Numbered from the stretch's first letter, positions 15,031-45,390 are shown. The stretch is DNA of 64,000 nt from an uncultured Methanosarcinaceae archaeon (GCA_963727895.1 CAVSHT010000005.1:352001-416000), one strand, 5' to 3'. Translations and numbers: made by a program. Notes: a model not told the origin generated them from the sequence alone.

Positions 15031-16035
15031 TTGGCTGTAGCGTTGCTTCTGTACTTTTCTTTTCTAATTCTGCTGCCCCTGGCAGACGGAATTGTACTTG
15101 GCATAGTCTTTGCTTACATTGCCAGACCCATCAAGATGAGATTCAAAAAGCATAAAAAAACTGGGGCACTTGCGGCCAGTATGTGTATATTCATCCCAAT
15201 AGTATTCATTGTCGGGGCAGGAATTGTTGAAATTATTAATCAGGTCTCCTGGATTATTAGTAATCAGACCGCAGTCGCGGCAGCCGTTCTGAATTTCATA
15301 AATTCTCTGAACATTCCAGATAAAGTTATAGAAAATGTTAATTCCGCCATCTGGGATCTATTTACCTCGCTGCTCCCTGCAGTAGGACGCATAGGGGTTT
15401 TTTCATATGCTCGAGGAATTGGTCTTTTTGTCGTTAATTTCATAGTTTCGATCATTTTTTGTTTTTATATACTTGCGGATGGTGACAGGCTTTACTTTGC
15501 TTTTCTTGGTGTGATTCCAAAAGAGTATAAGGGAGTTGTAAACCGTTATGCATGTCATCTGGATCTAATTCTTAGAGGAATTTTCATAGGTACTGCTTAC
15601 TCTTCACTTATAGTAAGTGTGACTTCAGTTTTTGTATTCTATGCATTTGGGTTTCCACATGCACTGGCACTTGCAACTCTTATCTTCATAGCCTCGGTAA
15701 TTCCTCTTTTTGCCGGATACATGGTGCTTGTGCCTCTAGCTTTAATGCGTTATATAGAATCAGGGTTTGAAAGTGCAGCATTTTTCTTTGTGGTCTCTTC
15801 TCTCATTATTTATGGGCCTCCCGAACTTATACTCAAACCTTACCTTGCTGGCATGAAATCTAAAATTCATCCGATGCCGCTCATTCTTGCCTTCCTGGGT
15901 GGAGCTTTTGTCGGAGGAATTGCTGGCTTTTTTGCAGCTCCAATTCTTTTGGGAGCCCTGGTTGCAGCTTACAGGGTTTATCAAGAACAAACAATAGCGG
16001 ATGACGAGTTTATACAAAAATTACAAATATCTTGA
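15031..16035 (+). CDS. AI-2E family transporter; C-terminus replaced by element-derived sequence
   Basis: Multi-TM with IHPMPLILAFLGG...GFFAAPILL motif; attL lies in the codons for RVYQEQ. Confidence 0.85.
   Translation: MAVALLLYFSFLILLPLADGIVLGIVFAYIARPIKMRFKKHKKTGALAASMCIFIPIVFIVGAGIVEIINQVSWIISNQTAVAAAVLNFINSLNIPDKVIENVNSAIWDLFTSLLPAVGRIGVFSYARGIGLFVVNFIVSIIFCFYILADGDRLYFAFLGVIPKEYKGVVNRYACHLDLILRGIFIGTAYSSLIVSVTSVFVFYAFGFPHALALATLIFIASVIPLFAGYMVLVPLALMRYIESGFESAAFFFVVSSLIIYGPPELILKPYLAGMKSKIHPMPLILAFLGGAFVGGIAGFFAAPILLGALVAAYRVYQEQTIADDEFIQKLQIS
15972..15991 (+). repeat. attL core CAGGGTTTATCAAGAACAAA
   Basis: Identical to 45294-45313. Confidence 0.9.
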
Positions 16036-16063
16036 GCCCCACTATATAACCGGAGGTTATATT

Positions 16064-17269
16064 TTGAGGGACGAAAAATTCTTATTTAGCTTTTTTGAAA
16101 AGAACAACACTTCCAAAAGAAACCAAGAAATTGCTTGGCGATACATTGACAAATATTTTAGAGATCCAGGTAGTGGACTATCTGAAGCGACTGTACAAAA
16201 TAATATTGACATTTTGTCTGTGATTCTTAAATTTGTTGATACTGATCTTGATAATTTAACGCAAGATGATGTTGACACGTTTAAAATAGGCATCAGTAAA
16301 TACAAAAAGAATAATGGTCAGCCAATTGCAAAAGCCTCAATGAAACACTATTATGTCGGGTTCAAGCAGTTTCTCAAATGGGCAGCAAGAGAATATCACA
16401 AGCCTGAGTATCGGGATCTGAGCGAGAACTTTTCGACAAAGTTAAAAACAAAAAAGAAAAATGCTTCTGATCTTTTGACTGAGCAAGAGATTGACAAAAT
16501 TTTTGCAGCAGCAATACATCCCAGAGACAGAGCAATTCTTTCAGTCTTGTCTGAGAGTGGCTGCCGAGCAGGTGAGCTTGTCAGTATGCAGATCAAGCAT
16601 GTGAAGTTCACAAATGAATTCGTCTGGGTTACATTCCCGCAAAGTAAAACAACACCTCGGGCTGTGCCATTAAAAGAGTCGATGATATATCTGTCAGCTT
16701 GGCTTACACATCATCCATTGAAATATGACGAGGAAGCACCTCTTTGGGTTTCACTGAACCCAATATCTGCCACAAAGGGCGGTGGTGATCGTGCCTATCA
16801 ACCGATGCCGAGGTCAGCTGTACTTGAGCTTGTTCATAGACTTGCAAATAAAGCGGGGATAAAGAAGCGATGCTATACTCATCTGTTCAGACATTGTGCA
16901 GCCACAAAAATGTCAAAAGAATGGACTGAGCCACGAATGCGGAACTTTTTTGGCTGGTCAACTCACTCAGCAATGCCTTCGGTCTACTCACATTTGGGAG
17001 CTGGGGATTTCGAAGAAGCAATGAGAAAACTGTGCGGCACAGCAGAAGAAAGAAAACCCGAACCTAAATTCCAAAAATGTCCCAGATGCAAGCGTGAATT
17101 GCCAAAAAGGGCTGAGTACTGTGATGTTTGCGGCACAAAGCTTGGGAAGCAGCAGGTTCAAAAAGCTGATGATGATCTTGCAAGTCAAATGCGTCGTATA
17201 CTCTTAGAAGAGCATCCAGAGATCTTACAAAAAATTGTTCTCGCGATGACAAAATCACAAAATCAATAA
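16064..17269 (+). CDS. Tyrosine recombinase/integrase with C-terminal Zn ribbon
   Basis: Catalytic motifs SGCRAGE, SKT, HLFRH, GWS, VYSH; CPRC..CDVC; TTG start after GGAGG (ORF is open from 16001). Confidence 0.92.
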   Translation: MRDEKFLFSFFEKNNTSKRNQEIAWRYIDKYFRDPGSGLSEATVQNNIDILSVILKFVDTDLDNLTQDDVDTFKIGISKYKKNNGQPIAKASMKHYYVGFKQFLKWAAREYHKPEYRDLSENFSTKLKTKKKNASDLLTEQEIDKIFAAAIHPRDRAILSVLSESGCRAGELVSMQIKHVKFTNEFVWVTFPQSKTTPRAVPLKESMIYLSAWLTHHPLKYDEEAPLWVSLNPISATKGGGDRAYQPMPRSAVLELVHRLANKAGIKKRCYTHLFRHCAATKMSKEWTEPRMRNFFGWSTHSAMPSVYSHLGAGDFEEAMRKLCGTAEERKPEPKFQKCPRCKRELPKRAEYCDVCGTKLGKQQVQKADDDLASQMRRILLEEHPEILQKIVLAMTKSQNQ

Positions 17270-17384
17270 CGGTAAAAGATTACATATATGTTGAAACAAT
17301 AATTATTATTGAAAGTGACTTACTTCGGCGAGATTGCCTCGATGAAAGCATATCACTCTTTTAAATGAATATCGAGGCAATATT

Positions 17385-17537
17385 ATGACCCAAACATTTG
17401 AAGAACAGGCTGCTGAGCTTGTCCGCCAAAATACTGACAGTGTAAAGAGGATTACACAGTATCATTCTGACGCTTTCACTAGAGCAATGGCTCAAGTGTT
17501 TCTTGAGACAGCGGGTGAGCAGCCATGTCAGACCTAA
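17385..17537 (+). CDS. Small hypothetical protein, 50 aa (MTQTFEEQAAELVRQ...)
   Basis: Read by hand; overlaps the next start, first gene of an operon-like run. Confidence 0.5.
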   Translation: MTQTFEEQAAELVRQNTDSVKRITQYHSDAFTRAMAQVFLETAGEQPCQT

Positions 17538-17830
17538 AAATGGTCAAAGCCTGCCCGAATTGCGATAGTACGCACCTCCACTATCGAAAACGAACAAATG
17601 ACTATCACTGCATTCATTGCAAATCGGTATTTAGTGAGCCCATAGAACGACCTGCAAAGCCCAAAGGTCATGAGCTCGGCATGTGTGGCAAATCTCGTCA
17701 GTGTCCAGAATGTGGCAGTCGAAAGACGAGATATAGTAGCCCTCGACTCAATGGCCCTAAGCATTGGGTCTGTACATATTGTTATAATACTTTTGATGTG
17801 AACCGAGACTGCCAAGCCCGCAATGCCTAA
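17525..17830 (+). CDS. Double Zn-ribbon protein
   Basis: CPNC..CIHC and CPEC..CTYC. Confidence 0.7.
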   Translation: MSDLKMVKACPNCDSTHLHYRKRTNDYHCIHCKSVFSEPIERPAKPKGHELGMCGKSRQCPECGSRKTRYSSPRLNGPKHWVCTYCYNTFDVNRDCQARNA

Positions 17831-18181: not shown

Positions 18182-18183
18182 CG

Positions 18184-19229: not shown

Positions 19230-19589
19230 TTATGACCTATTAACTGGAGTTCCTGCTGGTGGAGTTGCTCCTCTGGGAGGAATGGTACCGTTGGCTGACA
19301 TATTATCTGGGTGCATTGTTGAATTAGGTGGCATGTTCCCCATTTTTCCTTCTGGAGGCATTGTCGCATTATTTGGCACATTTCTTGATTTTCCTCCAGA
19401 GGGCATGTTATTAGGTGACATGTTACCGGGGTTTCTTTCAGCAGGTCTCGTATTATTGTTTGACATATTGCCTGCGTTCTTTTCTGTAGGTGTAGCGTTG
19501 TTAGATGTTTTATTGTCAGTACATCCTGACATCGCTAATACTAACATAAGTAGCAAACCAATCACTAAAAAACTAACTTTTCTCATCAT
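19230..19589 (-). CDS. Putative lipoprotein, Asn/Met/Pro-rich low complexity
   Basis: Signal peptide with lipobox-like AMSGC followed by GNM/PP repeats. Confidence 0.7.
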   Translation of the reverse strand: MMRKVSFLVIGLLLMLVLAMSGCTDNKTSNNATPTEKNAGNMSNNNTRPAERNPGNMSPNNMPSGGKSRNVPNNATMPPEGKMGNMPPNSTMHPDNMSANGTIPPRGATPPAGTPVNRS

Positions 19590-20503: not shown

Positions 20504-22887
20504 ATGAGTGAAGCAAATAATTCACAGGATAATATGCAGTCACCCGAAAAGGTTGAGGGAGAGCCCGAGGCAGTTTATGTTCAGGCACCCGTCGATGAAG
20601 TGCAAGCGAGAATTGAAAAACTTGCAAAAAAGACTGGTAAAAGTGCTGATATTATACAGGCAGAACTTGATAAGATCATGCAAAACATGCGCGGTGATGG
20701 AGTTAATAATGCAACTCAAGCTGACAAATTGCGAGGAGCACTTATATTTTTAGAATCGCAAGTGTCCAACTACACAAAAAGTGTATTACCTGCTGATGAA
20801 TGTGAAAGTTCTAGTATAATGTCACAAACACGAGCTGACAAGTTTTATGGTTTAAAGCGAAATCCAAATATAGTGCACATCGATTCAAAAACTTACATTT
20901 TGCCATATGATGAGGAGAAAGGCGTATACTATGAATTCGATTCCAATCCTGAGACATCTGGCAAGCGTGGTGAGATTGTTAAAATCACTGCAAAACGAAA
21001 TAAAGACGAGTCATATTTCTGGATCAGAGAGAGAATATGTAACTGTATGACCATGGTTACAAGCTATCATCACTCGTTGGAGTCAACACATTGTTTTGTT
21101 GAAATTGCATATACTGACTACAGTGACAGAACTGCAATATGGAAACAAAAAACAATTCCAGCTGAAGCAATAGCAACAAAAGATGGACTTAAAAGAGTTG
21201 TTGTGCCAGAAGGCATAGCCATTATTGAATCGCAGTTTCAAGATATGATTGAATTCTATAGCTTGTGTATTGCACATAATGATCATCAGAAAAATACAGA
21301 TTTCACTTGTGGTAGTGTGACTGAAACCACTGGCTGGAAAAAAATCAACAAAACTGATATGACATCTAACATATTTGTTGTTGGGAATTATGCATATTAT
21401 CTCAAAAATAACAATATCGAGCGACGCTGTTCACTATTCAACGATACTAAAAATGCTGACGTTGAATCTAAGCTTCAACAAAAAGGCACATTGGAAGGCT
21501 GGATTGATGCGGTACGACCACTTATCGGCCACAATATCGTTAGAGTAGTTTGTTATGCCGCAATGGCATCAACATTAATCAAAGTTCTAGGAAGTCCACA
21601 ATTTACACTTGGTATAGTAGGCGAGAGTTCGATCGGTAAAACACTTTCGACGCAAGTTGCAGCAAGTCTCATCGGAAATCCAAATGATAAAGATGGTGGA
21701 CTATTAGATAGTGGTGATGTCTCAATTACTGGTTTGAGTGCAATTGTCACAACATTTAATGATCTCCCATGTTTCTTTGATGAAACAACAACAATGAAAG
21801 AAGACGTGAAAAAATATCTGGGTTATTTGATTGCAAATGGTCAAGAACCAAAGAGAGGAACAAAAGATGGAAAACTACGTGACAAACATCCAATTAGATC
21901 TAATGTGATACTGACTGGTGAAACCGATTTTATCTCAAGAGTTGCAAATGATGGTGCACAAACGAGAGTTATAGTGATTAGAGATCGACCAATTCCAAAG
22001 CTTGACTACCCGAGCATACTATGGCAGTCGAGGGATAAAATGCTGGAAAATTTTGGTCATGTAACACCACTATTTCTCAAGCAAATCGATATGCTAGGTA
22101 GACAGCAACTTATCAATGCATATCATGTACTTAGAGAATATTATGCGAAGACAACAACCGATGAAAAACAACAAAGAAAAGCACAGTGTTTTGCTTTGAT
22201 GGAAATTGCCGGGATATTGCTCGAAAAAGTATTTGTGAACATTGGAATTGAATATAAGGATCCTCATAAGGTCACTCAGTCACTTTGGGAACGCTGTGTT
22301 ATAGAGAAACCTGATGTATCACTTGCTGTACGAATCGCACAATCAATAGATGAATATATCGAATCAAATAAACTAAATAATTTCATCGTCAATAATAATA
22401 AAGATGCCAAAATAAGTGGTGATGGACTATATGGCTATATTAAAATAAAAAACGACGAATACAACGCTTGTTTGTACCCAGATAAGCTCAATGCACATCT
22501 CAGAAAACATGACTATAGTATGACCCCAGTGTTTGTTACAGGGATTTGAAAGTAAAGGGTATAATCAAAGTCGATCCAAAGAGACGCGATTTTACAAACA
22601 ATGTTCACCGTGGTGGAAATAGACTTCAGCTAATCAACATTGACATGCTTAAGTTGCAGGAATATATAGGTATGAAATCAGAGCCAGATTACAATACTGA
22701 TGACATCACTGATGTACTCGGGGATGTGATAGCATATTCAACTCCTATAATATCACCTGTGACTGGCGAGCCAATACGGACATGGAGTGATTTAAATAAG
22801 CCTTGTAAGAAACTCGAACCAAAAAAACAAATCGATGAATCCGAGTTTCCACAAAATCCCTACGATTCTATTGATGATGAATGGTAA
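20504..22887 (+). CDS. DUF927-type P-loop replication helicase; C-terminal domain (22546-22887) separated by an apparent frameshift
   Basis: TGW motif, Walker A GESSIGKT, Walker B PCFFDE, ILTGE; the downstream ORF continues as DLKVKGII... one base out of frame at ~22540. Confidence 0.75.
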
Positions 22888-23002: not shown

Positions 23003-23402
23003 AAGTCCATAAAAAATCGGTTGCAATATGGACTTTTTTATGGACTCTTTTCGGTATTGGTAGACAACTTGAAAAAAGCTTTATGGACTTTTATGGACTC
23101 TCAAAACGATATCCCAATACCGAAAAATCAAGAAGTCCATAAAATTTGGTCAAATTACACGTATATACGTAAATATATTCATACGCACGCATGAGTAAAT
23201 ATTAATTAATTTATGAAGTTCTAACATTATAAATTTGTTTATATGCGAATTCTTCCTATAAGGGTGTAGATTCTTTACGGACTTTATGGACTTTTATTAC
23301 TATATATACTTAGATGTATTCATACACTTATACCAATACCGAAAAGAGTCAAAAAAAAGGTCCATAAAAAAGTCCATAAAGGTCCATAAAATTATGGACT
23401 CT
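23003..23402. repeat. Iteron-like cluster (TATGGACT/AGTCCATA), putative replication origin
   Basis: About 12 exact or near copies in both orientations plus inverted TTTTCGGTATTGG/CCAATACCGAAAA around an AT-rich centre, directly after rep. Confidence 0.7.
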
Positions 23403-24082: not shown

Positions 24083-25639
24083 ATGAAAAGTCATAACAAA
24101 ATTAAGTACAGAGATTTAATATCTGTAGTTCTAATTTTAGTTTTATTATTGGTATCATCTGTGGCATCTTTGGCCACTGCACAGACTGGTTCTTCCGGAA
24201 ATACTGCATATGTTACTAATGATGACGGAACTATTTCTATCATAAATACTGCATCAGACACTGTTATAGCCACAGTGCCTGTGGGAAATGATCCTTATGG
24301 AACTACAATTACTCCAGATGGAACAATAGTTTATGTGACAGATTACAAAGCTAACAAAGTTTATGGAATTGACACAGCTACAAATACTGTTACAGCCACA
24401 ATACCTGTAGGCGATGTCCCTTATGGCATTGCAGTTACGCCAGATGGAAAAAAGATCTATGTAGCAAATAATGGAGATAAGACAGTTTCGGTAATTGACA
24501 CAGCGTCAAATAGTGTTATAAAAACAGTTTCTGTGGATAGTAATCCTTATGGAGTAGCAGTTAACCCATCGGGAACGAAAGCATATGTAACAACCTCAGG
24601 TAGTAATTCTGTATATGTAATTGACACTTCAACAGATACTGTTACAGATAAAGTAACTGGATTAAGTGGTGCCTATGGAATTGCCTTTAATCCAGATGGT
24701 TCACAATATTACATAACAGAGAGGGGAACTAACAGTGTTTCTGTCATTGACAGTGAATCAGATAAGGTTGAGACGAGTGTACCTGTAGAAAAAGACCCAC
24801 ATGGAGTTGCAGTAAGTCCGGATGGAACAAAAGTATATGTGGCAAACAATGGAGATAACACCGTTTCTGTAATTGACACAGCCACAAATACCGTTACGGC
24901 TACAGTAAATGTTGGAAATGCTCCTTTTGGGGTTGGAGTTACATCAGATGGAACAAAAGTATATGTAGCTAACCGTGGACAAGATAATCGTCAATTAAAA
25001 ACTGTATCGGTAATTGACGCATCAAGCAATAATGTTATAAGTACGATAAATGTAGGAACCAATCCAAAGGCTTTTGGGTTATTTATAAGCAGTTATTCAT
25101 CAGCCACTGAATCTAATACAGGAACTTCTACTAATACAGGAACTTCTACTAATACAGGAACTTCTACTAATACAGGAACTTCTACTAATACAGGAACTTC
25201 TACTAATACAGGAACTTCTACTAATACAGGAACTTCTACTAATACAGGAACTTCTACTAATACAGGAAATTCGACTCTTTCTAAAGTTATTAACAATTAT
25301 AATAATATTACCATATATAATAAAACTAGTAATAATAATAACAATAATATAAATAGTGGAAATAATATTACAGGCAATAATATCAATATAGGAAATACTA
25401 CAAACAGTGGTAATAATATTAGTCATAGTAACATCGATAATAAAAATAATACGAGTAATAATAACATAAATGGCAATAATAATATAAATGGCAATAATAA
25501 TATAAATGGCAATAATAACATAAATGGCAATAATAACATAAATGGCAATAATAACAACTCTACAGAACATGGGTCTAGTTGGTTAGATGTTATTTATGAA
25601 GGTGTTATAGCCAAGCTGTTTGAGTTAATAAAATTGTAA
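24083..25639 (+). CDS. Secreted YVTN beta-propeller surface protein with Ser/Thr/Asn-rich tail
   Basis: Signal peptide, seven ~42-aa YVTN/PDG repeats, NTGTST and NNNING repeats. Confidence 0.9.
   Translation: MKSHNKIKYRDLISVVLILVLLLVSSVASLATAQTGSSGNTAYVTNDDGTISIINTASDTVIATVPVGNDPYGTTITPDGTIVYVTDYKANKVYGIDTATNTVTATIPVGDVPYGIAVTPDGKKIYVANNGDKTVSVIDTASNSVIKTVSVDSNPYGVAVNPSGTKAYVTTSGSNSVYVIDTSTDTVTDKVTGLSGAYGIAFNPDGSQYYITERGTNSVSVIDSESDKVETSVPVEKDPHGVAVSPDGTKVYVANNGDNTVSVIDTATNTVTATVNVGNAPFGVGVTSDGTKVYVANRGQDNRQLKTVSVIDASSNNVISTINVGTNPKAFGLFISSYSSATESNTGTSTNTGTSTNTGTSTNTGTSTNTGTSTNTGTSTNTGTSTNTGTSTNTGNSTLSKVINNYNNITIYNKTSNNNNNNINSGNNITGNNINIGNTTNSGNNISHSNIDNKNNTSNNNINGNNNINGNNNINGNNNINGNNNINGNNNNSTEHGSSWLDVIYEGVIAKLFELIKL
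25113..25270 (+). repeat. Coding 18-bp tandem repeat (CTAATACAGGAACTTCTA x8 plus partial)
   Basis: Direct reading; encodes NTGTST. Confidence 0.9.
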
Positions 25640-25646
25640 AGAAAAA

Positions 25647-25768
25647 GGCTCTGTAGAAAACTTATCTAAATCAGTTACTATAAGCTAAAAACCAATTTGC
25701 AAAAATATATCAATTAATTCAGTTAATATTAATTGGGACTTTTCGTATAAGAGGATATCTACAGAGCC
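25647..25768. mobile_element. MITE with GGCTCTGTAGA TIRs
   Basis: GGCTCTGTAGA ... TCTACAGAGCC. Confidence 0.65.
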
Positions 25769-25984
25769 AAAAAAGTATATTTAAATGTAAGAATTAAAGT
25801 ATATCCGAAAAGTTAGTAGTTATATTGAAAACGTTAAAATTTGAATTGGCTTTTATCCACAAGCTAATCAATTTTATAAATATAAGGATTCTGGATAATA
25901 ACCTTTATAGATGAACTCATCTAAATCAATAAAGATCATTGTGGTATTTCTTTAAACAGCTCTGGTAAATATGTTTAAATTCTT

Positions 25985-33291: not shown

Positions 33292-33435
33292 AAAATTATG
33301 GTGAAGAACACGTGACAGGGCCGTAAAACCTGTCACGATAGAACTAAGATAAACAATAAGTAATAGGGTTTCCTATTATAAATATCTTTTTCTGCCGTAA
33401 GTCGCGTGTTTTCACCTAAATAGAAGGTGAAGAAC

Positions 33436-34709: not shown

Positions 34710-35135
34710 AAAAGTGCCAAAAAGGTGCCAAAGAGCCCCATTCCTAAACTTTTTGAGGAATTTGAGCTAAATATCCTCGATAATATATTTTTCTCTTTTC
34801 GTGCAAACTATTCGAGACTTTAAATACTACGCCTCCTATTTTTATATACAGACAAAATATATTATTATTTAAATACTAATATAAAAATCAAGAAGAGGAA
34901 GCACGAAAATGAAAACATATCGGGCAAAATGTATGGGTAAAAACTGTAGAATGGACTCAATGATGAAAGCATCAGCTAAAAGGCACTGCTTTCACCTAAA
35001 GAGGCGGTATAATGGTCGTAAGGCAGACTAAACGACTTCGCAAATATATCCCAGAAAAATCAAGGTATGTAAAATCAGCTAATGGGATAATGAGTCAAGC
35101 ATTCAAGCTGATAAAAGCAATGAGGCGGTGATATT

Positions 35136-35447
35136 GTGGCAACGAAGTTCATCATGGGATATCCTGTAGATGTTAATGATGATCCAGAGGACGAATCTCT
35201 AATTCACAAAGTCAAGCAGTTCAAGCCTAGCAATATGATGGGTCACACCTTCACTAAGCCACCCACTAGACTGAATTTGATAGAAACCAGCGGCTTACCA
35301 AAGTCAAAAAACTTGAGTCAACGACGCGGGGATATATTAACGCAGTATGAGCCTCGTAGAAGGAGAAAGAAAGCTATTCCGGAGTTTGAATCGCAGTTTA
35401 TAGGGGATCAAAATCCCTATGGTGACGATATGGTACAATGGCGGTGA
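35136..35447 (+). CDS. Hypothetical soluble protein with basic patch RRRRKK
   Basis: SD GGTGA, GTG start, coupled to downstream genes. Confidence 0.55.
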   Translation: MATKFIMGYPVDVNDDPEDESLIHKVKQFKPSNMMGHTFTKPPTRLNLIETSGLPKSKNLSQRRGDILTQYEPRRRRKKAIPEFESQFIGDQNPYGDDMVQWR

Positions 35448-35452
35448 ATTAA

Positions 35453-35743
35453 ATGATTGAAGGAATTAAAGTCCTTATAATGCGAATTATTGTATCATTA
35501 TGCATTGTCATTGGTGCCATGCCGCTATACAGGTTTATTTACGCATTTGCAGTAGGAACAAATCCAAGCTATTGCCTAGAAGCGATGTACACCGTTAATT
35601 CGAGCGTAAACATGATTTATCCTATTGCAATGATCGGAATTGCAATCGCGGTATTTCACATTTACTACCGCTGTGTTAGAAAGAGAGTTTATGAAAGCAC
35701 ATATTCGGAGACAGGATATTATGACCCCTACACGCGAACGTAA
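35453..35743 (+). CDS. Small two-TM hairpin protein (candidate virion protein)
   Basis: Two hydrophobic helices with basic RKR after TM2. Confidence 0.6.
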   Translation: MIEGIKVLIMRIIVSLCIVIGAMPLYRFIYAFAVGTNPSYCLEAMYTVNSSVNMIYPIAMIGIAIAVFHIYYRCVRKRVYESTYSETGYYDPYTRT

Positions 35744-36035
35744 GCTTCTAAAGCGGCTAAATGATTATATCCATGAGTCTGAGCCTGCGTTGGTAGTCTG
35801 CTGGTTCGACATAGTAAAAACTTTGATATTCGTAGCCGCGATTTGGGTTTGTCTGTCCCCATTGCTTGATGCTTTTTATCTCTACGTGAATGCAAATTCA
35901 TCGGGCTTTTACGCAAATACAGACATTGAGTTCACTTCTAGTGTATACAATTTTTGGCGGTACATACCGATCATAACAGTTGGTTTTGTACTTTTCTATG
36001 CAATCAACTACTCGAACTGGAAGAGGAACGAGTAA
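35721..36035 (+). CDS. Small two-TM hairpin protein (candidate virion protein)
   Basis: LIFVAAIWVCLSPLL...NSS sequon...WRYIPIITVGFVLFYAI. Confidence 0.6.
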   Translation: MTPTRERKLLKRLNDYIHESEPALVVCWFDIVKTLIFVAAIWVCLSPLLDAFYLYVNANSSGFYANTDIEFTSSVYNFWRYIPIITVGFVLFYAINYSNWKRNE

Positions 36036-36123
36036 TTTTCTTTCTTTTTTGCTGCTCACTATATCGAAAACACCAAAAAATATATGTGGCCGGCACTGTA
36101 TTAATTAATTGAGGTGATAGAAG

Positions 36124-36288
36124 ATGAGTGATGTTATACAGTGGTTTATAGGTGTTGGAACAAATATGCTTTGGATGATGGCAATCGTTTTTATAATGTT
36201 TACTGTCATGCTGATTATTTGTCATTTCTTACCAGAGCGACCAGCGGAGCCAGAACAAGCTGATGAGCAGCCAGAAGCCATAAACTAA
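36124..36288 (+). CDS. Single-TM small protein, 54 aa
   Basis: Read by hand: MSDVIQWFIGVGTNMLWMMAIVFIMFTVMLIICHFLPERP...; SD GAGGTGA; T-rich tract after the stop. Confidence 0.55.
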   Translation: MSDVIQWFIGVGTNMLWMMAIVFIMFTVMLIICHFLPERPAEPEQADEQPEAIN

Positions 36289-36649
36289 TTCTCTTCTTTT
36301 CTTCTTTTTCTTTTTTTGCGTCTTCTTCTACCGATTACTAATTCGAGGGTATATATATTCGGCACCGAATTATTATATACAGACGAAATATAATATTATT
36401 TACATATTAATATAAAAAAATCAGTAAGAGGAGACTTAAAATGAGTAAAATTGTAATCGGGATGACAGCCGACGTGGCTGAGACACTTGGCAATATAATC
36501 AATAGCGGGGTAAATTCAAGCTCGAACAACATGACGATGCATTCATCATTTTGAATGGTGCAAAAATCTATCGAAAGTATTCATCAATAACGTGGGCTGC
36601 GAAGAAGTATGATCGGCTCACTTCAATTTTTACAAAGGAGTGAGGGCAA

Positions 36650-38217
36650 ATGCATAAAAATATCCCAAGAATAATATTATTCACTTTACTATTTAGCTTG
36701 TTCACTGGTGCAGCTGGTGCATTGATAGCTATTCATTTGAAATATACGGATCTGGTAATTCTTCAGTTCGCGGTACAATCTATCAAACAATGAATTTTAC
36801 CAATGGTAGCTATTATACTATTGGTGCTTGGATGAAAACATCACCTGGTGCAGTAGGATTTTTAAAGGTGAATATCTTTAATAGCACTGGGAGTTATGAT
36901 TCCGCAGCAGCTGCGATGGGAACAGCTACAACAACGTGGACGTGGGTTTCGACTCGAGTCTTGGTCACAGTTCCACAAGCGCATGTTCGTATATTTCTAG
37001 CACTATATCAGACACAAAGAATGTATATTGTCACAGTTCCACAAGCGCATGTTCGTATATACGCAGATGCTACACCAAATGGTAACTTCTATGTAGATGG
37101 TATCATTGTATCACCTGATTCTTCATATTCAGCGAATGAATCAAATGATTCAACACACCTCTATCAGTCGTTTATATATACGCCTGCTACGGTCTATTCG
37201 AGTTCAGTATTTGCAACCAGTTTCGCGACTGAAACCCCTTCTAAGTATTCAAATAATGTTGCAACAGCAAAAATTGATGGTGCAACTGTTTCAGCTTGGA
37301 TTGCAAATAATCTAATATATGTCGATACCTCAGGTTTAACAGCCGGTGCACATACAATTCAGGTAACTGTAACACACGATGCACTTGTGTATGTAACTGC
37401 GGCTTTCAGCGCAAATACAACAAGTGGTCAGATACCACTCACTGTTGCTTTTACTGATACATCTACTGGCTCACCAACAAGCTGGGCTTGGAATTTCGGC
37501 GATGGCAGTACATCTACATCTCAAAATCCAACACACACATATAGCACATCTGGCACATATTCAGTCAGTTTGACTGCAACAAGTGCAAATGGTGCAGATA
37601 CCGAGACTAAAAATGCATATATCACAACGTCATCGACAATACCCACCGCAGCATTTTCGGGCTCGCCAATAATGGGTACTGCACCATTAACAGTGCAATT
37701 TACTGATAAAAGTGCTGGTGCGTCACCAATAACATATTTGTGGAATTTTGGTGACGGTAATACATCGACATATCAAAATCCATCACACATATATATCGCA
37801 AATGGCAACTACACGGTGAATTTGACTATCACAAATTCATACGGCACCAATAGTACATCTAAAACAGCATATATCGTCGTAGGCACATCTGACGCTGCAA
37901 ATAATACATTCAGAAACTATAGCCAATATAAAGATGTATTATTTCAGTCAAACATGTCAGCGTGGGACTTTGTGAAAAATACAAAGAATTTCTACGTAAG
38001 TTTCATGCCTGAATGGTTCTTCTGGCTGATCATATTGATCATCCCATATATTGGAATGTATAATAGACAGGGTGGTATTGAACTTGTTGCAGTGCTATAC
38101 TTGTTTACTGGTGGAATTGTTGCCCTTGTAATGCCAACTGTCATAGCACCCTTTGCAAAATGGTTCCTGATCTTGGGTGCCGGTGGCGTAATATATAAGA
38201 TGTTTGTTCCCGATTAA
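36650..38217 (+). pseudogene. Membrane-anchored adhesin (CBM-like + 2 PKD + 3 C-terminal TMs), signal peptide out of frame
   Basis: WNFGDG PKD motifs twice; YTIGAWMKT CBM-like strand; signal peptide at 36650 is in another frame; internal ~30-bp duplication (VTVPQAHVRI x2). Confidence 0.75.
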
Positions 38218-38343
38218 GGCTATTACGCTTCCTCTTCTTCGTTTTCATCGACTTCCGAGGCTTTTTATACTTTGTAACCTTTTTATAAACATAAAATATA
38301 TATTAATATTTAAATATAAATATATAAATCAGTGGTGAGAAGC

Positions 38344-38577
38344 ATGAACTCCTCTCATGACATGTTTAGCTTTGCCTTCGTGGCAATAATGATATTGGGC
38401 GGCATAGCAATGCTGTCTAGCGTTGTCTATATTGGTGGGCTGACTAATGCAACAGCTCCATTACATAGCACATTTACAACGATGACAGGGCTAATGAACA
38501 GCGGGATTGGGCTGGCAGCTATTGGTGTTATAGCATTGGGCGCTGGTATAGTGTTAAGAGTGTTCGATTATATTTGA
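38344..38577 (+). CDS. Small Gly/Ala-rich helical-hairpin protein, candidate major capsid protein of spindle-shaped virus type
   Basis: 77 aa, two long hydrophobic helices joined by an LTNATAP loop carrying an N-glycosylation sequon; has its own copy of the repeated promoter. Confidence 0.5.
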   Translation: MNSSHDMFSFAFVAIMILGGIAMLSSVVYIGGLTNATAPLHSTFTTMTGLMNSGIGLAAIGVIALGAGIVLRVFDYI

Positions 38578-38588
38578 GGGATATTATA

Positions 38589-38909
38589 ATGGTGCTACCT
38601 ATAAATGCTTGGCTAATGATCGTGATAATAGCGATTGCTTGTTCAGCGATTTCAATTTTTATAAAAGACTGGCAAAATTATATAGACGCCATTTGTGGTG
38701 TGCTTGCAGCAATATTATGGCTTATTTCAGGGCTTGCTTGGCTGTCAGGTATTGCTACAGACAATGCAACTTATATAGCGCCTTATTTGTTTTGGGTGTT
38801 CTTAGCGATCGCAGTAATTCAGGCTATACTAGCAATTGTTAGAATTTTGGACATATTGACTGAGAGAAAGAAAGAACAGCACACGTCATTTGCACCTATT
38901 CATCTATAA
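38589..38909 (+). CDS. Three-TM small membrane protein
   Basis: Hydrophobicity; closely coupled to the previous gene. Confidence 0.6.
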   Translation: MVLPINAWLMIVIIAIACSAISIFIKDWQNYIDAICGVLAAILWLISGLAWLSGIATDNATYIAPYLFWVFLAIAVIQAILAIVRILDILTERKKEQHTSFAPIHL

Positions 38910-39160
38910 GAAGGCAGTTTTAGTCCTCTATTATGTTATTTTTGGACTTCCTATTTTACCTAATACATTTACATCAGGCATAGACAATCGCTTAAAATAT
39001 CCCCTCTACGAAGGCTAGATAAGTCTGTATTTTGGCACTTTGAGTCGATTTTTCGAGGTTATTTATATCTTGAAGCGCTATTTCTATTTACAATAAAAAA
39101 TCTATTAATATTTACTAATTAATATATAAGTACACCACAAATTGAGGCTGTGAGCAAAAT

Positions 39161-39553
39161 ATGCCACGAGATGTGCTTAATATAAGCAAGTTAACTGATA
39201 AAGAACAGCAGATATTAAACAATGTACTCGAAGACAAATATGATCAAAAAGGATTAATGACGTACGGAGACTCAAATACTCGATGGTTCGAGAACAATAT
39301 ATGGCTTAACAAATTATATGTTTCATTAATAATTGTCATGATCAGCGCCGTGATTGATAGTATAATATCTCCGCATGCAATGAGTGATATTTATACACTG
39401 TTTGCTACTGGCTTTCCTGCAATTGATGATCACCTACGCGTTTTTGGAAATACAGGTTTAGCAATAGCGATTTTAATCGATATAATTACAGCATACATCA
39501 TAATATCGCTACTAGACGTATTTAAATTAGTCAAAAATCATTTTAGTAAGTAA
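39161..39553 (+). CDS. Two-TM membrane protein
   Basis: Hydrophobic segments; preceded by the repeated promoter cassette. Confidence 0.6.
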   Translation: MPRDVLNISKLTDKEQQILNNVLEDKYDQKGLMTYGDSNTRWFENNIWLNKLYVSLIIVMISAVIDSIISPHAMSDIYTLFATGFPAIDDHLRVFGNTGLAIAILIDIITAYIIISLLDVFKLVKNHFSK

Positions 39554-39873
39554 TATATTAATACTCACTTTTTCTTTTCACATGTAGTTTACTTCTAACG
39601 GCAAATAGAGAAACCGTAATCGATATTCGAACCTTTTTATATATTGAATCCCTATTTCTATTTACAGAAAAAATATATTACTATTTATATACAATTATAA
39701 AAGTCAAATATAACTGGCAGGTAGTATCGAATCGGAAAGGCTTAAACAACCTTCGTGGTAGCCACGTATACCTCGCAATTTTATCGCAGGCTGGATGGTT
39801 GGAATATTTAGAACTTCAGATACGATATCATCTCAAAAAGTCCACAACACATTGCAACAAATGAGGTGAAATT

Positions 39874-40395
39874 TTGGCCAGAGGGATCTACCACAAGACA
39901 AATGTTTTAAAGTTTAGGATTATGCACGCGGTATTCAATGCAGGTGAACCACTAACATGTAGAGAAATAGCATCCCGCCTTGATGTACCGCTTGTAAATG
40001 TAAGCGCCATAATGAATCATTATCAAAAGCAACCTGAGCATAAGTATTTTCGGTGACTAAAGCCAATAAAAGGCAAAGCATATCGATATAAACTCACAAA
40101 AAGCGGTGCGAAATACCTTGCAAAATATTGTTGGCGGCTGCATGAGGGCTTCAGTCTATCACTATATAAAGTAAAAAAGATGCCAAAGCGAGATAAAGTC
40201 ATAGCTGAGCGCAATGCTGAAGCTGAGTTGAGAGATGCTATATTTGAAAAAACAGGTGTTGAAATGCCTAGAAAGCCAAAACCAACAATAAAAGAACTAT
40301 TAAACTTTGATCCCGCTGAGTTAACCGATTACATGGGCATTACAAAAATGGGAGCGCTTGAAATGGGAATTACAGGATTCGACTTTGAGGTTTAA
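39874..40395 (+). pseudogene. Winged-helix protein interrupted by an in-frame TGA at 40054-40056
   Basis: LTCREIASRLDVPLVNVSAIM...YFR*LKPIKGKAYRYKLTKSG continues in frame into ORF 40180-40395. Confidence 0.7.
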
Positions 40396-41116
40396 TTCTC
40401 ATTCTTTAACCTCATACCACAATCAAAATAAACGTATTGATTTGGGATATTTGATAGTTGAGCCAATTCCGACCTTTAATTTTTGTCTCAATTTTAAATA
40501 TTTACACTCCATGTAGCTGCCTCCACGAAAACTGCCTTATATTATATTCTTGAGCGGCTTTGAGCGGTCCGTTCGCTGAATCTCGAACCGGTAGGCATTT
40601 TTGGACTTTTTGTCGATTTTATTAGGCTAAACGTAATTAGCTGCTCTGTATTTGTAGACTTATTTCGGAATCACAGTAATTATTAATGACACTCTAAACA
40701 CTGGTTAACATTTTGTATATCTATCTCAGTAGCCTCACCTCTAAGCTTTCTATAGATCCCACAATAACGCTTATCACAAGCTTTTTTACATGTATATGAA
40801 TTATTTCGATATGCAGAACATCTTAAAGCGTATTCGCATTTGATATCAAACATATCCAGCCCCTTTTAAACTTCAGTTGTTTCCACTTCATTTTCGAGCC
40901 TACCCCAAAGCTCAAAATCACTTCTCTAATGCTCAAATATTAAAAAAGAAAACAGCACAACTGGCTAATGTAGGTACTTAAACACCAGCCAGTTAGGATT
41001 TATTTTAGTTATTTAACTTTCAAGTATAGTTATACGTTTTTATTTCTAGTATCAATATTCAGGGTGTAAGTATACTAAAACATCAGTAACTTAGGGTTAT
41101 TGTCTTTCCATATGCT

Positions 41117-41545
41117 TCATCGGTAGTATTTATTATAATTGTTATAAAAGTTGTTATAATTGCCATACCAGCTGTGATAATTGCCGTACCAGCTGTTATA
41201 TTTTAACAACCACGCCATGTACATTTTATACCAATTATTGTAATATTTGTCGTGCTTCTTGTGGTTCCACTCATTCTTTTGGCGGTTCCAATTATTCCTT
41301 TGTTGGTCCCAATTATTCTTTTGGCGATTCCAATCATTCTTTTGGCGATCCCAATTATTCCTTTGTTGGTTCCAATTATTTCTATCCCCAATATTCTTTT
41401 GCTGGTTCAAATTATTTCTATCCCCAGTATTCTTCCCACCATTATTATATGCATTATTCGGAGCTGCACTTACTGCTGCAACTGTCACTGACATTACAAA
41501 ACAAAATGCCAGCAAAATTCCTAGTATCTTTCTCATTTTCAGCAT
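41117..41545 (-). CDS. Secreted Asn/Trp/Tyr heptad-repeat protein
   Basis: Signal peptide; NNWNQQR/NNWDRQK x6 and YNSWYGN-type heptads. Confidence 0.75.
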   Translation of the reverse strand: MLKMRKILGILLAFCFVMSVTVAAVSAAPNNAYNNGGKNTGDRNNLNQQKNIGDRNNWNQQRNNWDRQKNDWNRQKNNWDQQRNNWNRQKNEWNHKKHDKYYNNWYKMYMAWLLKYNSWYGNYHSWYGNYNNFYNNYNKYYR

Positions 41546-41944
41546 TTTATTTACCCCATATATTTGCTGTTTAGATAGCCTTCCTTTATTGTCTTAAGTA
41601 TCTCGCTGATTATTCACAGCTTGACAATCCTAAAATAAGCCAGCTAAAATATAAACATACTTATAAATAATAATTTATAAAAGGGGACTAATTATATAAA
41701 TAATGGTTTCTAAAGGATTAAATATGAAAATATCCTTTTATAAGTGATATAACTATGAAACCACGTCCCAAATGAATTAATTTCTTAAAAAAAGGTTTAG
41801 AAATTTTTATTTATCCATAACACAAATAACATTCTGTTGTGAAAATGTCCAAATAAGTATGTGAATGTATGATGAACAAAAGTCAAAATATCCAAGGAAA
41901 ATATATGGATATTAAAGAAATGGTCCAACTAGTTGATTAATATT

Positions 41945-42065
41945 GAAATATTCAGAAGACTGCTGATAAGATAGGAAACGAAAATTGAGAATTACCTTGC
42001 TATGCTTCATTTAGGATGTGCATGTATAACATTCAGGGCAGCAGGACTTTTCGGAAGGCTCTTAA
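41945..42065 (+). mobile_element. IS5-family 3' remnant
   Basis: Matches 53100-53217 (KIENYLAMLHL..AAGLFG region and right IR). Confidence 0.7.
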
Positions 42066-42182
42066 TGAGTATGATTATTGTACCTATGTATCGATTCCAC
42101 AAAAAACCTCTCTATTTTATATTTGCGAGAGGCGCCGTTCAGATCGTTCCGCGGTTCTGACAGTGTAACATAAGTTCTGTAA

Positions 42183-44315
42183 GTGCGACAAGATGTTATG
42201 TCATAAATTGCCTTGTGCTACTCTTTCCATTTAGAGTAATCCTATTATGAGGTGCATCAGCAGTAATGCAGTTGTACTAAGCTCGTAAGACAATGTGGAA
42301 AAGCCTGAAAGTCTAACTTGGGTCATCTGCTAGGGTAAAAATGCTATGAAGAAACATATGTTGAATCATTGTACGGGTCGTGACTCATGACAAGCGAAAC
42401 TAGACTGATACGCTTGAACCAAACGGTATGAAAGCAGGCTGCGATGGTGTTACAGACGTCGCAGAAAATGGACATACGACTTTCCGGTCTATAGATGGCT
42501 TCTAAAGCATTTACATTATTTGTGACATAAAACTTGGTAAGCCCTATATGCTCCTTTTAATAAAAAAAAAAAGAGGTAGAGACTCTGTGAAGGGAATTAA
42601 TTGCATAGAGGGTAGAGGATTCAGTAAAAAGCGAATGTCAATCTGTAATGGAATTGGATAGGGGTTCAAACTTTGCCTTGATCCGAAAGGGTGCAGACTT
42701 ACTGATTGGTGTTCTATTGTATGAAAGGAGGCAAACTTCTGAATGTAAGTATTTCAACGATATCCCTTCAGGATAAGAAGCTTACAGACGCTCATCTCTC
42801 CCAGAAATGGAAAAGTATCAACTGGCATCAAGTAGAGAAGAGTGTTAATAAGTTGCAAACCCGAATTACAAAAGCAGTCTTACAAAACAAATGGAACCTT
42901 GTCAAGAGATTACAGTATTTACTGACTCATTCCTATTCCGCCAAACTTTTGGCAGTAAGAAGAGTTACTCAAAATAAAGGAAAAAGGACATCTGGAATCG
43001 ATGGTGAGAAATGGTTAACACCTGACTCCAAAATGAAAGCTGTTCTTAGTCTCACTGGTAAAAGATACAAAGCTAAACCCCTTAAAAGAGTCTTCATCAA
43101 TAAACCTGGTAAGAAGAAGAAACGTCCTTTAGGTATCCCTACAATGTATGACAGAGCTATGCAGTCTTTATACGCATTAGCTCTTGAACCCATAGCTGAA
43201 ACTATGTCTGACATCAGGTCCTTTGGATTTAGAAAACACCGAAGTACTAAGGATGCATGTCAGCAAATCTTTCTATGTTTAAGCAAGAAAAATTCAGCCC
43301 AATGGATCTTAGAAGGCGATATTAAAGGATGTTTTGATAATATAAATCATCAGTGGTTGCTGGCTAATATTCCAATGGAAAAGTCAATACTAACTCAATT
43401 TCTCAAAGCAGGTTTTATTTACAAACGTCATCTGAATCCAACAAAAGCAGGCACGCCACAAGGCGGGATGATCTCCCCTATTTTGGCTAATATGACATTG
43501 GACGGTCATCGAGAAGTTACTTTTGGCTGAATACCCAAAAAGAAAAGAATTCAACCAAGGTTAACTTCATCAGATACTGCGATGATTTCATAGTAACTGC
43601 TAATTCAGAAGAAACTGCCAGAGAAATCAAGGATATGATTGCTGTTTTTCTTAAAGAAAGAGGTCTTGAACTATCTGATGATAAAACTCTTATCACAAAT
43701 ATTAATGAAGGCTTTGACTTTCTGGGCTGGAATTTCCGCAAGTACAAAGGCAAGCTTCTGATCAAACCTTCCAAGAAGTCCATTAAAAGATTCACTGAAA
43801 CAATTAGTCAAACCTTAAGAAAAGGGATAGCATGGTCCCAAGATAACTTAATTTCCAAACTAAATCCAATAATAAGAGGTTGGACTAACTATCATAATTC
43901 AGTGGTCTCTTCGGAAACATTCCAGACACTTGACCATCGAATCTGGGAAATGTTATGGAGATGGGCTAAAAGAAGACATCCAAACAAATCCAAAGATTGG
44001 ATTGTCAACAAATATTGGAAGCAAAGTACTACACGAAAATGGAACTTCAGAACAGAAAGAAACAGTTTATTGCTTTTATCCAAAACCAGAATCTATAGAC
44101 ACATTCCTTTAAAACTGCAAATGAATCCATTTCTTGATATCGACTACTTCCATGAACGTCATAATAAATTAAGTTCCCGGAAAAGTCAATCCGTTTGAAA
44201 AAAAACTGCTGCCTGATACAGAAAGGGTTATAGAACGCTTGAGCCGGATGAAGGGAAACTTTCAAGTCCGGTTCTTAGAAGAGGGAGAGCGAGTAATCGC
44301 TCTTTCTTATTCAAC
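42183..44315 (+). mobile_element. Group II intron
   Basis: 5' GTGCG; domain V GAGCCGGATGAAGGGAAACTTTCAAGTCCGGTTC, domain VI hairpin, 3' end ...TTCAAC. Confidence 0.9.
42721..44198 (+). pseudogene. ltrA: Group II intron reverse transcriptase/maturase, frameshifted near 43505-43550, no HNH endonuclease domain
   Basis: RVT_N, RPLGIPT, EGDIKGCFD, PQGG, YCDD (out of the first frame), GFDFLG, NPIIRGW maturase motif. Confidence 0.85.
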
Positions 44316-44675
44316 AATTACAAATTTTAAAAAGTTTTTGAGCCATAAATTCCATATCCGAAGATCAATTTTCCCATAATACACAAAAACTTGACTTCAA
44401 ATTTACAGCAAATTTGCGACACTGCCGCGGTTCTGGAAAACGGCGATGATTTTTGAAGATTTTGAGGATATTTTGAGCGTTTTCCAGCGATATTTATGTA
44501 TATCCAAGATCCTGATATCATGTTGTGGAGGCTCTACGAAAGCTCCAGTAACAAGCGTATCCTCGATAAGTGCCGAATTTTCATCTTGGTTCTGAGCTAT
44601 AAAGAACTATGGTTTAACTATATTATATTTAGATCCAACCAGATATATATATTTGATCAGACCCTATATACTTAC

Positions 44676-45137
44676 ATGTCAACAATTATCATAAATCGAA
44701 CCAAATACATCAATGTAAACATCCTTCCTAAAATAGATTCACTGGCTCAAGAGCGTTCTTGCACAAGATCTGATGTACTAAGAGACGTATTCTATTCAAG
44801 TTTTAAATATCCAAAACAAGAAAGAACACCTGAGCAAATTGAAGCCGACCATGAACTTGAAGCATATGATAAGCGAGAGAGAGGACGCAAGTATATAGTT
44901 GTGGCAGTTGAAGATGCTTTCCATGAAGCACTTTTTAGATATTGCATCACAAGGCGTGGTTGCAATAATAAAGCAATCGAGTATATCCTAGCTAAATATC
45001 TTCACATACCAGTAGAAGACAAAGGTTTTAGAGACGATTTTATTCGGCTGCTTTGTATTTATAGCGTCGCACAGGACAAAGGCACTGGCAAGGGCATTGT
45101 GCGGGTTAAGAAAGTATCTACTATAACTTCTTTATGA
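44676..45137 (+). CDS. Putative tandem RHH DNA-binding protein near attR
   Basis: KYINVNILPKIDSLAQERSCTRSDVLRD and a second similar unit. Confidence 0.55.
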   Translation: MSTIIINRTKYINVNILPKIDSLAQERSCTRSDVLRDVFYSSFKYPKQERTPEQIEADHELEAYDKRERGRKYIVVAVEDAFHEALFRYCITRRGCNNKAIEYILAKYLHIPVEDKGFRDDFIRLLCIYSVAQDKGTGKGIVRVKKVSTITSL

Positions 45138-45293
45138 AGCCTCTAGTCAAGCTGGCTGTTGAGCGAGGAGTAAAATACCCAACATCTTAAAAATGTTTTG
45201 ATAAATAAACTCGTTAACTTTAATCATTTTGACGCAGCTTCAAAAAACAATTGACTCCATAAAACTTATTATACAAATAAACTCAATAAGCGG

Positions 45294-45313
45294 CAGGGTT
45301 TATCAAGAACAAA
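45294..45313 (+). repeat. attR core CAGGGTTTATCAAGAACAAA
   Basis: Identical to 15972-15991. Confidence 0.9.
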
Positions 45314-45390
45314 ACCACTCAGAATTTACAGAGACAAACCTGGACCTTAGAAGCATTGGACTCTCTCGTAAGGTCAACTCAGAAAAGTAA
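45294..45390 (+). pseudogene. Displaced native 3' end of the AI-2E transporter gene
   Basis: In the transporter frame it reads RVYQEQNHSEFTETNLDLRSIGLSRKVNSEK*. Confidence 0.75.

Follow-up and report, generated by a model that had tools for sequence, protein, structure and literature searches.

Archaeal genetic elements can integrate into protein-coding genes, as passages of a review of the subject state (PMC8371274), and the closest described precedents come from the Thaumarchaeota. In the survey of Krupovic et al. 2019, 14 of 68 integrated thaumarchaeal elements occupy the 3'-distal parts of protein genes, as verified by empty sites, and one example, with an attachment (att) core of 13 bp, replaces the stop codon of its target (PMC6563490). 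That an element should enter the 3' end of a protein gene and change its tail is what a known mechanism, already in print, leads one to expect. Here we examine such a case in a stretch of 64,000 nucleotides from an uncultured Methanosarcinaceae archaeon (GCA_963727895.1, CAVSHT010000005.1:352001-416000; hereafter the window), in which an element of 29,322 bp occupies the 3' end of a gene for an AI-2E family transporter. The element's own genome holds a match to mcrA, and we judge the host to be a methanogen of the genus Methanosarcina. In all likelihood the element entered this chromosome through its own classical, that is non-suicidal, Xer-like integrase acting on a 20-bp core, and would be plasmid-like once excised.

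Comparison with the thaumarchaeal elements shows a tyrosine recombinase, a short att core, the 3' end of a protein gene as target, a replaced stop codon and verification by empty sites to be common to both, whereas the phylum and the target genes differ, no gene content is shown in common, and at the present locus 14 codons are added and 25 stranded (PMC6563490). Closer to the host, the genus Methanosarcina has a poor catalogue of mobile elements. From a digester, a Methanosarcina virus contig of spindle type has been reported (PMC9796341), and sections of a further report describe pleomorphic proviruses from Methanomassiliicoccales and Methanonatronarchaeia together with an isolated virus, AvPV1, that integrates at a tRNA-Gly site (PMC10919331).

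Insertion into the 3' end of a transporter gene

The borders of the element are set by a perfect direct repeat of the 20-mer CAGGGTTTATCAAGAACAAA (Table 1). The window contains no third match to it, even with two mismatches allowed; the assembly of 3,668,200 bases has only these two exact copies, the next best matches carrying three mismatches; and none of 100 shuffled windows held two matches. The left copy lies in the transporter gene, where the 20 bp span the codons of an invariant AAYRVYQE motif closing the last transmembrane (TM) helix, and the alignments with transporters of relatives reach 15989-15991. The present protein ends in ...AAYRVYQEQ-TIADDEFIQKLQIS-TGA, and reading in the same frame past the right-hand repeat gives NHSEFTETNLDLRSIGLSRKVNSEK*, with its stop at 45388-45390 and thrS downstream. 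A preliminary description of this DNA, made from the sequence without database searches, had proposed the repeat, the transporter gene rather than a tRNA gene as target, the retention of the TM part, and the exchange of the native tail NHSEFTETNLDLRSIGLSRKVNSEK, stranded behind attR, for TIADDEFIQKLQIS. All of these points hold: the open reading frame (ORF) that contains the left repeat matches PF01594, a tRNA gene search of the window found none, the TM part is kept in alignment with relatives, and both tails are as given there.

That description also entails that relatives free of the element should have the transporter joined to the tail at 45314-45390 upstream of thrS, and this is the arrangement that was found. 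A query of 592 bases from the left flank matched 22 of the 41 genomes in a draw of relatives (own genome included) and 20 of 24 same-genus relatives, nearly all matches extending to query position 588-592 of 592, i.e. into the repeat. The same-genus comparison was made on the 11 loci of other genomes fetched from these matches; in every one the left and right flanks of the window are adjacent, with an overlap of ~18 nt, and the transporter continues to a tail of the kind ...YRVYQEQIHPE...SEK*. A second scan, made on species genomes, which excludes one unrelated bacterial match and may overlap the genomes of the former set, gave 15 loci of Methanosarcina, Methanosarcinales or Methanosarcinaceae, all with a continuous gene, a native-type tail and then the thrS flank. 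Here the tail has an HPE-like motif and ends with EK at or just before the stop (15/15; SEK* in ten), so that we regard it as moderately conserved.

Empty sites are likewise present in all four public metagenome runs examined (X1, X2, X3 and X5), whose contigs are 90-99% like the window and fit it exactly to 15991. Past this position the X2 and X3 contigs read ACCACTCAGAATTTACAGAGACAAACCTGG, the same 30 nt as the window has after attR, and those of X1 and X5 a variant of the post-attR sequence. In X2 there is, in addition, a contig of 133 nt that spans 15958-16090 (34 letters on one side and 99 on the other, with 4 differences), which is the occupied junction of a slightly different copy, alongside the empty one; depth in these data is per contig and is not a measure of cell share. 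Since the metagenome contigs are independent, an assembly artefact is an unlikely source of the repeat or the junctions. With repeats bracketing the stretch, one of them beside an integrase gene, uninterrupted single-core targets in relatives and the catalytic set of a tyrosine recombinase, the reading that site-specific recombination placed the stretch in the 3' end of the transporter gene is supported.

Integrase, replication region and related elements

The integrase gene begins 73 nt from the end of attL. Its longest ORF opens at ATG 16001, and the product measures 401-422 aa according to the start chosen, TTG 16064 being the likeliest because GGAGGT lies upstream and because similarity to a second integrase copy in the same genome (82% identical) begins there, at residue 20-22. 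The PF00589 score is 69.7 bits against a cut-off of 27.1, the NCBIfam model that it resembles is XerA-like with a score below cut-off, and alignment with Pyrococcus XerA (4a8e) shows the catalytic R, HxxR, W and Y to be kept (GCRAGEL, HLFRH, GW, VY). The integrase is thus, as first described, intact and unsplit. An element of the 'suicidal' SSV type was considered and ruled out, since the reading frame is whole and undivided, and the core lies outside the integrase gene.

In the mechanism that we propose, the 20-bp attP core of a circular element would have been recombined by its own integrase with the identical 20 bp of the host. As the target segment is conserved across the genus, it could serve the element as a tRNA gene serves others, and it is because the shared core is short that 25 native codons would be left behind attR and 14 element codons added. 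If attP is reconstructed from the two ends, its core would stand between the near-repeats AATAAGCGG and CAATAGCGG, which, speculatively, may be integrase-binding sites. When integrated, the integrase gene is probably read through from the transporter gene, given a gap of 28 nt and a ribosome-binding site, and in the circle it would follow the last gene of the element. The excised circle could then replicate in plasmid-like fashion, a helicase of the DUF927/Cch-like kind acting on neighbouring iterons. The present copy has also taken up a group II intron, insertion sequence (IS) debris and host-like surface-protein genes, and has a nonsense codon in a regulator.

The replication part of this scheme draws on the region behind the DUF927 gene. 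Against 3.43 sites expected, the window contains 11 TATGGACY sites, a number reached in none of 100 shuffles, and all 11 fall within 397 bp directly behind the helicase gene, a cluster that is the probable replication origin; the placement of an origin here in the preliminary description is borne out to that extent. The gene order given there (integrase, zinc-ribbon genes, DUF927 helicase, iteron region, cargo, membrane-protein module) likewise stands, except for the ribbon-helix-helix (RHH) component, for which there was no Pfam match in the ORFs scanned at E<=0.01, nor at E<=2 for eight ORFs including the last gene. The helicase matches the NCBIfam model of the SCCmec Cch1 helicase at 3.4e-22, below cut-off. 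With the SCCmec Cch1, staphylococcal and Bacillota phage primase-helicases it has in common the PF06048 family, phrog_8841 and a place beside a site-specific recombinase in an integrative element, but the bacterial DUF927/Cch helicases are only 21-28% identical, and here the host is archaeal and the recombinase of the tyrosine type, that of SCCmec being a serine recombinase.

At E<=1e-40, 37 of the 59 genomes of the genus (own genome included) contain integrase relatives, all of them at most 38% identical except for the 82% copy, which occupies an intergenic place in the element's own genome (C4:229250-230819). DUF927 relatives at E<=1e-20 were found in 25 of 151 genomes of the family and in 6 of its 16 genera. 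The two genes lie 1-5 kb apart in ten other genomes (G074, G047, G012, G023, G051, G057, G060, G017, G146 and G092). Flanking repeats came to light at three of these loci: 25 bp around 31.5 kb in G074 and 23 bp around 26.8 kb in G047, each in the spacer that follows a pyrF-like gene, and 58 bp around 7.4 kb in G057, at or in a tRNA-like sequence. Judged from these loci, the family integrates at varied targets, a protein gene among them.

The nearest relative by gene content (G017:C3) has a helicase of 32% identity, a DUF6908 protein (53%), a 134-aa protein (55%) and three membrane proteins (34-46%), and G146, from another genus, holds the integrase, the helicase, the 3-TM protein and a protein of the 35691 type within 10 kb. 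The genomes G017, G146, G092, G161, G013 and G058 also hold portions of the membrane module. Overall, the related Methanosarcinaceae elements resemble the present one in the integrase (29-34%), the DUF927 protein (25-32%), DUF6908 (53-68%; G074, G023, G017), the 3-TM protein, two further TM proteins and a small helical hairpin protein, and differ from it in integration sites (pyrF-like spacer, tRNA-like repeat), gene order and cargo. Since integrase-DUF927 pairs are present in ten genomes and module parts recur, a family exists. Its proposed gene set comprises integrase, DUF927 helicase, DUF6908, a hairpin of 77-91 aa, the 3-TM protein and two more small membrane proteins. The earlier suggestion of an uncharacterised family of methanogen proviruses or plasmids is in this sense upheld as regards the family, which recurs in ten other genomes, and left unproven as regards the provirus, for no virus hallmark was found.

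The same genome also contains a decayed relative (C4:389309-406499) with broken integrase and DUF927 genes, as well as stretches 83-96% identical to parts of the element. Elsewhere, a scan of JGI metagenomes with the integrase gave 6 loci on short contigs, all at most 36% identical; in PLSDB the helicase found only bacterial DUF927 plasmids and the integrase two haloarchaeal plasmids at 25-29%. A full-text literature search, covering the main texts of papers, returned no paper pairing Methanosarcina with DUF927 and none describing this integrase-DUF927 family in Methanosarcina. With its exact borders, genus-conserved core, intact integrase and probable origin, the element offers a clean test case for archaeal site-specific recombination outside tRNA genes, and Methanosarcina genetics might gain from it a native integration tool or replicon.

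Membrane-protein module and the nature of the element

The module of small membrane proteins is organised in five units, each preceded by an AT-rich copy of a ~78-nt sequence with TATA-like boxes, and these five promoter-like copies suggest a shared regulator. The conserved 3-TM protein occurs in 8 of the 151 genomes and in 3 of the 16 genera, and its alignment has ten invariant columns. A search of ESM Atlas with it gave a best score of 0.86, no named cluster and no lead, and a word-indexed protein search found just 3 JGI relatives on contigs of 1.3-1.6 kb. The 77-aa hairpin has 4 true relatives, each likewise of 77 aa, among 1.84 billion representatives (three further matches were long low-complexity proteins and were removed from the alignment), and its profile picks up small proteins encoded next to the 3-TM gene in G146, G092 and G161 (E 9e-6 to 1e-4; hhalign probability 75%). 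All five members of the hairpin family are weak matches to PF04956 (TrbC/VirB2), the best at E 0.0039 and all below the 27.9-bit cut-off; the 91-aa homologue of G146 is similarly weak (E 0.013, below cut-off). The hairpin profile has no match among PDB sequences, and its AF2 model, modest in confidence (pLDDT 65.7), shows a plain hairpin of two helices for which Foldseek gave no match at E<=0.001. At G146:C1 6169-6918 the 91-aa hairpin gene is followed by a gene for a 99-aa membrane protein that is weakly type IV leader peptidase-like (24.8 bits, cut-off 26.5).

Among the parts of the element, the membrane module is the one most likely to serve transfer or particle formation. It has no known counterpart, and its role is a rewarding question, this being the only part with real discovery potential.

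A number of observations weigh against the reading of the stretch as an integrative element that is plasmid-like once excised. Neither a circular form nor an attP junction was seen among the contigs, so that we infer excision, on which the mixture of occupied and empty states in X2 bears in a suggestive way only. Flanking repeats of at least 14 nt are absent from the loci of G146, G092, G017, G012, G023 and G051, and G060 has only a 15-nt match; the 82% integrase copy on contig C4 also has no flanking repeat of at least 14 nt, and its neighbouring ORFs look unrelated, for which reasons it is an apparent remnant, implying that members of the family can decay in the genome. No close relative emerged from the virus, plasmid and metagenome collections searched (IMG/VR, PLSDB and JGI contigs, with the queries used), scans of IMG/VR with the helicase, the integrase and the 3-TM alignment (5 of 9 rows) giving none. 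No transfer or packaging gene was recognised with Pfam or PHROGs: a transfer ATPase of the VirB4/HerA type was absent from the Pfam scans (25, then 17 ORFs, the former set leaving out the transporter, thrS and two intron ORFs) and from the PHROG scan (24 ORFs), and the Pfam and PHROG scans likewise recognised no packaging ATPase, capsid, portal or fusogen family. Finally, the copy studied may no longer be autonomous: its regulator gene has a nonsense codon, its PKD gene a possible frameshift and a duplication of 66 nt, and ~4 kb have been inserted later. Its att cores, integrase and helicase, on the other hand, are intact.

One alternative, which we consider rather unlikely, is that the element is the provirus of a membrane-enveloped, non-lytic archaeal virus of pleomorphic or spindle-like type, its small hydrophobic proteins and PKD protein being virion membrane and spike proteins. 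Co-regulated small membrane proteins, a large protein that combines extracellular-type domains with TM segments at its C-terminus, and the lack of a packaging ATPase would fit enveloped archaeal viruses, and the closest viral integrases among 50,697 virus records belong to Geoglobus acetivorans pleomorphic virus 1 (27.7% over 89%, E 8e-36) and ThalV2 (31.2%, E 4e-33). The similarity to the Archaeoglobi pleomorphic viruses (BK065156.1 and BK065158.1; 28-31% identity, coverage 89% and 76%) reaches the C-terminal zinc-ribbon part, and the annotation of each record opens with the integrase gene. These viruses are, however, 13-16 kb in size and carry VP3-like and VP4-like proteins and a rolling-circle Rep, none of which is matched in the element, and by tblastn against the two of them the integrase alone matches. 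Comparison of the VP3-like proteins with the 3-TM family (2 against 9 sequences) gave an hhalign probability of 1.2%, the other small membrane proteins being compared by tblastn only; the VP4-like gp04 of GacPV1 against the PKD protein gave a BLASTP E of 5.3, and no element ORF matched the VP4-like genes of either record by tblastn, comparison in both cases being of sequence. With no VP3-like or VP4-like counterpart recovered in these comparisons and the match limited to the integrase, pleolipovirus membership is rejected. The pleolipovirus core includes an NTPase; none was seen in the element, where DUF927 was the sole ATPase family to come up in the Pfam scans.

The two-helix build of the 77-aa hairpin presumably resembles that of spindle-virus capsid proteins, but the hairpin has no match at E<=5 to the fusellovirus capsid families phrog_5402 and phrog_11172, which SSV1 VP3 as a positive control recovers at 9.2e-42 and 5e-15, and its BLASTP E is 28; at the level of sequence profiles a spindle-virus capsid identity is rejected. 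Likewise, no PHROG structural family is matched at E<=0.001, the hairpin and the 3-TM protein have no tblastn matches in the 50,697 virus records, and IMG/VR gave none with the queries tried. A comparison with host CRISPR spacers, proposed in the preliminary description, brought no support: the locus at C11:159855-169499 has two repeat variants (10 and 122 repeats) and 130 spacers, none of which matches the element or the related loci that were fetched, and the 18 matches outside the array are all partial, of 16-21 nt. We rank a plain or unusual plasmid-like element ahead of a virus.

A broader and more tentative proposal, to which we give slightly less credence than to the provirus, is that the Methanosarcinaceae elements form a new family of temperate, non-lytic, membrane-bounded viruses or of vesicle- or pilus-transferred plasmids, with mesophilic methanogens as hosts, in which the 77-91-aa hairpin would be the major structural or pilin-like protein and the integrase lineage would be that of the Archaeoglobi pleomorphic viruses.

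Doubtful to about the same degree as the provirus is the idea that the stretch is a fixed relic, a once-mobile island now unable to excise, replicate or transfer. One sign of this is the in-frame TGA in the winged-helix (wHTH) gene: the position is arginine in the homologue of G058, and a similarity of 58% runs across it. In-frame TGAs are also present in integrase relatives (G000:C12 and G015) and in the DUF927 relative on C4. We read such codons as nonsense mutations. Further signs of decay are a truncated TnpB gene, a split second copy of the propeller gene, and the PKD gene, in which a perfect repeat of 31 nt, its copies spaced by 66 nt, doubles 22 codons of the N-terminal domain. A 47-codon ORF from 36650 with a signal-peptide-like start abuts the PKD ORF in another frame, and the PKD gene may be a frameshifted gene. 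The reverse transcriptase (RT)/maturase frame of the nested group II intron is broken in two (42706-43530 and 43635-44198), so that the intron-encoded protein is probably inactive. Moreover, several fragments of related elements lie in the same genome. Against a relic stand both 20-bp cores, which are perfect, the whole frames of the integrase and helicase, and the integrase catalytic residues, all in place. Near-identical strains in four metagenomes are without the element and one sample contains both states, which indicates recent gain or loss.

It is improbable that replacement of the transporter C-terminus is an adaptive act that alters the regulation of the transporter or couples integrase expression to it. 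Since the native tail is moderately conserved, its loss could matter, and the integrase gene, 28 nt past the new stop, in the same direction and with its GGAGGT site, could plausibly be reached by read-through. But only one element at the transporter site was studied, so that the new tail, 14 codons of pre-integrase DNA, has no counterpart for comparison, and related integrases use intergenic and tRNA-like sites, which argues that protein alteration is not a trait of the family. Where the core is short, tail replacement is a by-product to be expected (PMC6563490). Of the C-terminal swap in the preliminary description the replacement itself stands, as a by-product of the short 20-bp core rather than a demonstrated function.

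Least credible by far is that the 20-bp repeat is a target-site duplication left by a transposase or casposase rather than an att site, for although direct repeats flank transposons too, and a TnpB fragment lies inside and IS copies nearby, a look for inverted repeats at the termini gave none (not one of the 19 listed inverted pairs connects both ends), Pfam scans revealed no Cas1, PolB or whole transposase, the TnpB is truncated and 18 kb inside the element, an intact tyrosine integrase sits 73 nt from attL, and related elements have repeats of 23-58 bp beside the integrase gene.

Feature coordinates, mosaic region and surroundings

Table 1. Features of the element and its flanks, with positions counted from the first letter of the window
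Feature	Position	Strand	Basis or remark
AI-2E family transporter gene, present form	15031..16035	+	Pfam PF01594 E 1.4e-42; host-derived up to 15991, followed by 14 codons of element DNA and a TGA stop (16033-16035)
attL core, 20 bp	15972..15991	+	in RVYQEQ codons, end of last TM helix; metagenome contigs diverge exactly at 15991
Tyrosine integrase gene, 401 aa from TTG 16064	16064..17269	+	GGAGGT 16052-16057; PF00589 3.5e-19 and C-terminal zinc-ribbon matches
Three putative zinc-ribbon protein genes	17525-17830, 17823-18032, 18139-19149	+	weak zinc-ribbon Pfam matches, all below cut-offs
Gene for small secreted protein or lipoprotein	19230..19589	-	translation; signal peptide ending in Cys; no Pfam family; 90% DNA match elsewhere in genome
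DUF927 replicative helicase gene, 681 aa, with overlapping 113-aa ORF	20504..22887	+	PF06048 6.6e-34; phrog_8841 DNA primase/helicase 7.9e-54
Iteron cluster (probable origin)	23004..23400	.	11 TATGGACY sites, both orientations, around AT-rich centre
Cargo/mosaic region	24083..34704	.	Pfam, repeats, matches to other genome places
YNCE-type beta-propeller surface protein gene	24083-25639		Pfam
Short multi-copy repeat	25985-26120		repeat search
Cys-rich Big_9 protein gene	27212-27604		Pfam
Split second copy of propeller gene	28434-30004		translation/Pfam
DUF6908 gene	30350-30766	-	Pfam; common to related elements
Truncated TnpB gene	33985-34704		Pfam
Membrane-protein module, five units	34810..40395	+	~78-nt promoter-like repeat before each (34810, 36341, 38251, 39052, 39626)
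2-TM and 3-TM protein genes	35453-35743, 35691-36035	+	
PKD protein gene, 475 aa	36790-38217	+	two PKD domains, C-terminal TM segments
Helical hairpin gene, 77 aa	38344-38577	+	start 38344 set by alignment
Conserved 3-TM protein gene	38589-38909	+	
TM protein gene, 130 aa	39161-39553	+	
wHTH (winged-helix) gene	39874-40395	+	in-frame TGA 40054-40056
Stretch common to several genome places	40543..42159	.	86-94% DNA identity to C5 and C4 places
N/Q/W-rich repeat protein gene	41117-41545	-	translation
Nested group II intron	42158..44426	+	Rfam RF02012 60.6 bits, RF00029 61.4 bits, both over gathering; RVT_N, RVT_1, GIIM
Last element gene	44496..45137	+	probable start near 44664; tblastn 44% to G058 143-aa protein; no Pfam family
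attR core, 20 bp	45294..45313	+	repeat search of window and assembly
Stranded native transporter tail, 25 codons and TAA	45314..45390	+	like tails of 11/11 and 15/15 relatives; identical 30 nt after 15991 in X2/X3 contigs
thrS, archaeal threonyl-tRNA synthetase (right-hand host gene)	45667..47574	+	Pfam PF08915, PF00587, PF03129

Between the iteron cluster and the membrane module the element is a mosaic, which also holds unknown proteins of 134 aa and 126 aa, the former common to related elements, and several stretches of this region are 80-98% identical to other places in the same genome. The short repeat of ~140 bp behind the first propeller gene has at least 14 copies of 76-90% identity on many contigs, with inverted arms at 25640-25669 and 26094-26123, and looks like a miniature transposable element.

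At the right end, the group II intron has a copy of 94.8% identity at C4:152231-154492, and a C4 copy of its flanks (~266.6-268.1 kb) is joined without the intron, forming an empty site for it. The last gene of the element adjoins the wHTH gene in the related G058 contig.

Outside the element, near-identical contigs of X2, X3 and X5 also stop fitting the window at 14999, just upstream of the transporter start, so that here, too, the window and those strains are unlike. Further upstream, 12762-13097 is a fragment of an IS1 transposase. A pair of DDE transposase genes of the IS240 type, at 4307-5011 (-) and 53679-54383 (+), have identical Pfam scores and are probably identical IS copies in opposite orientation, ~49 kb apart, that bracket the whole region.

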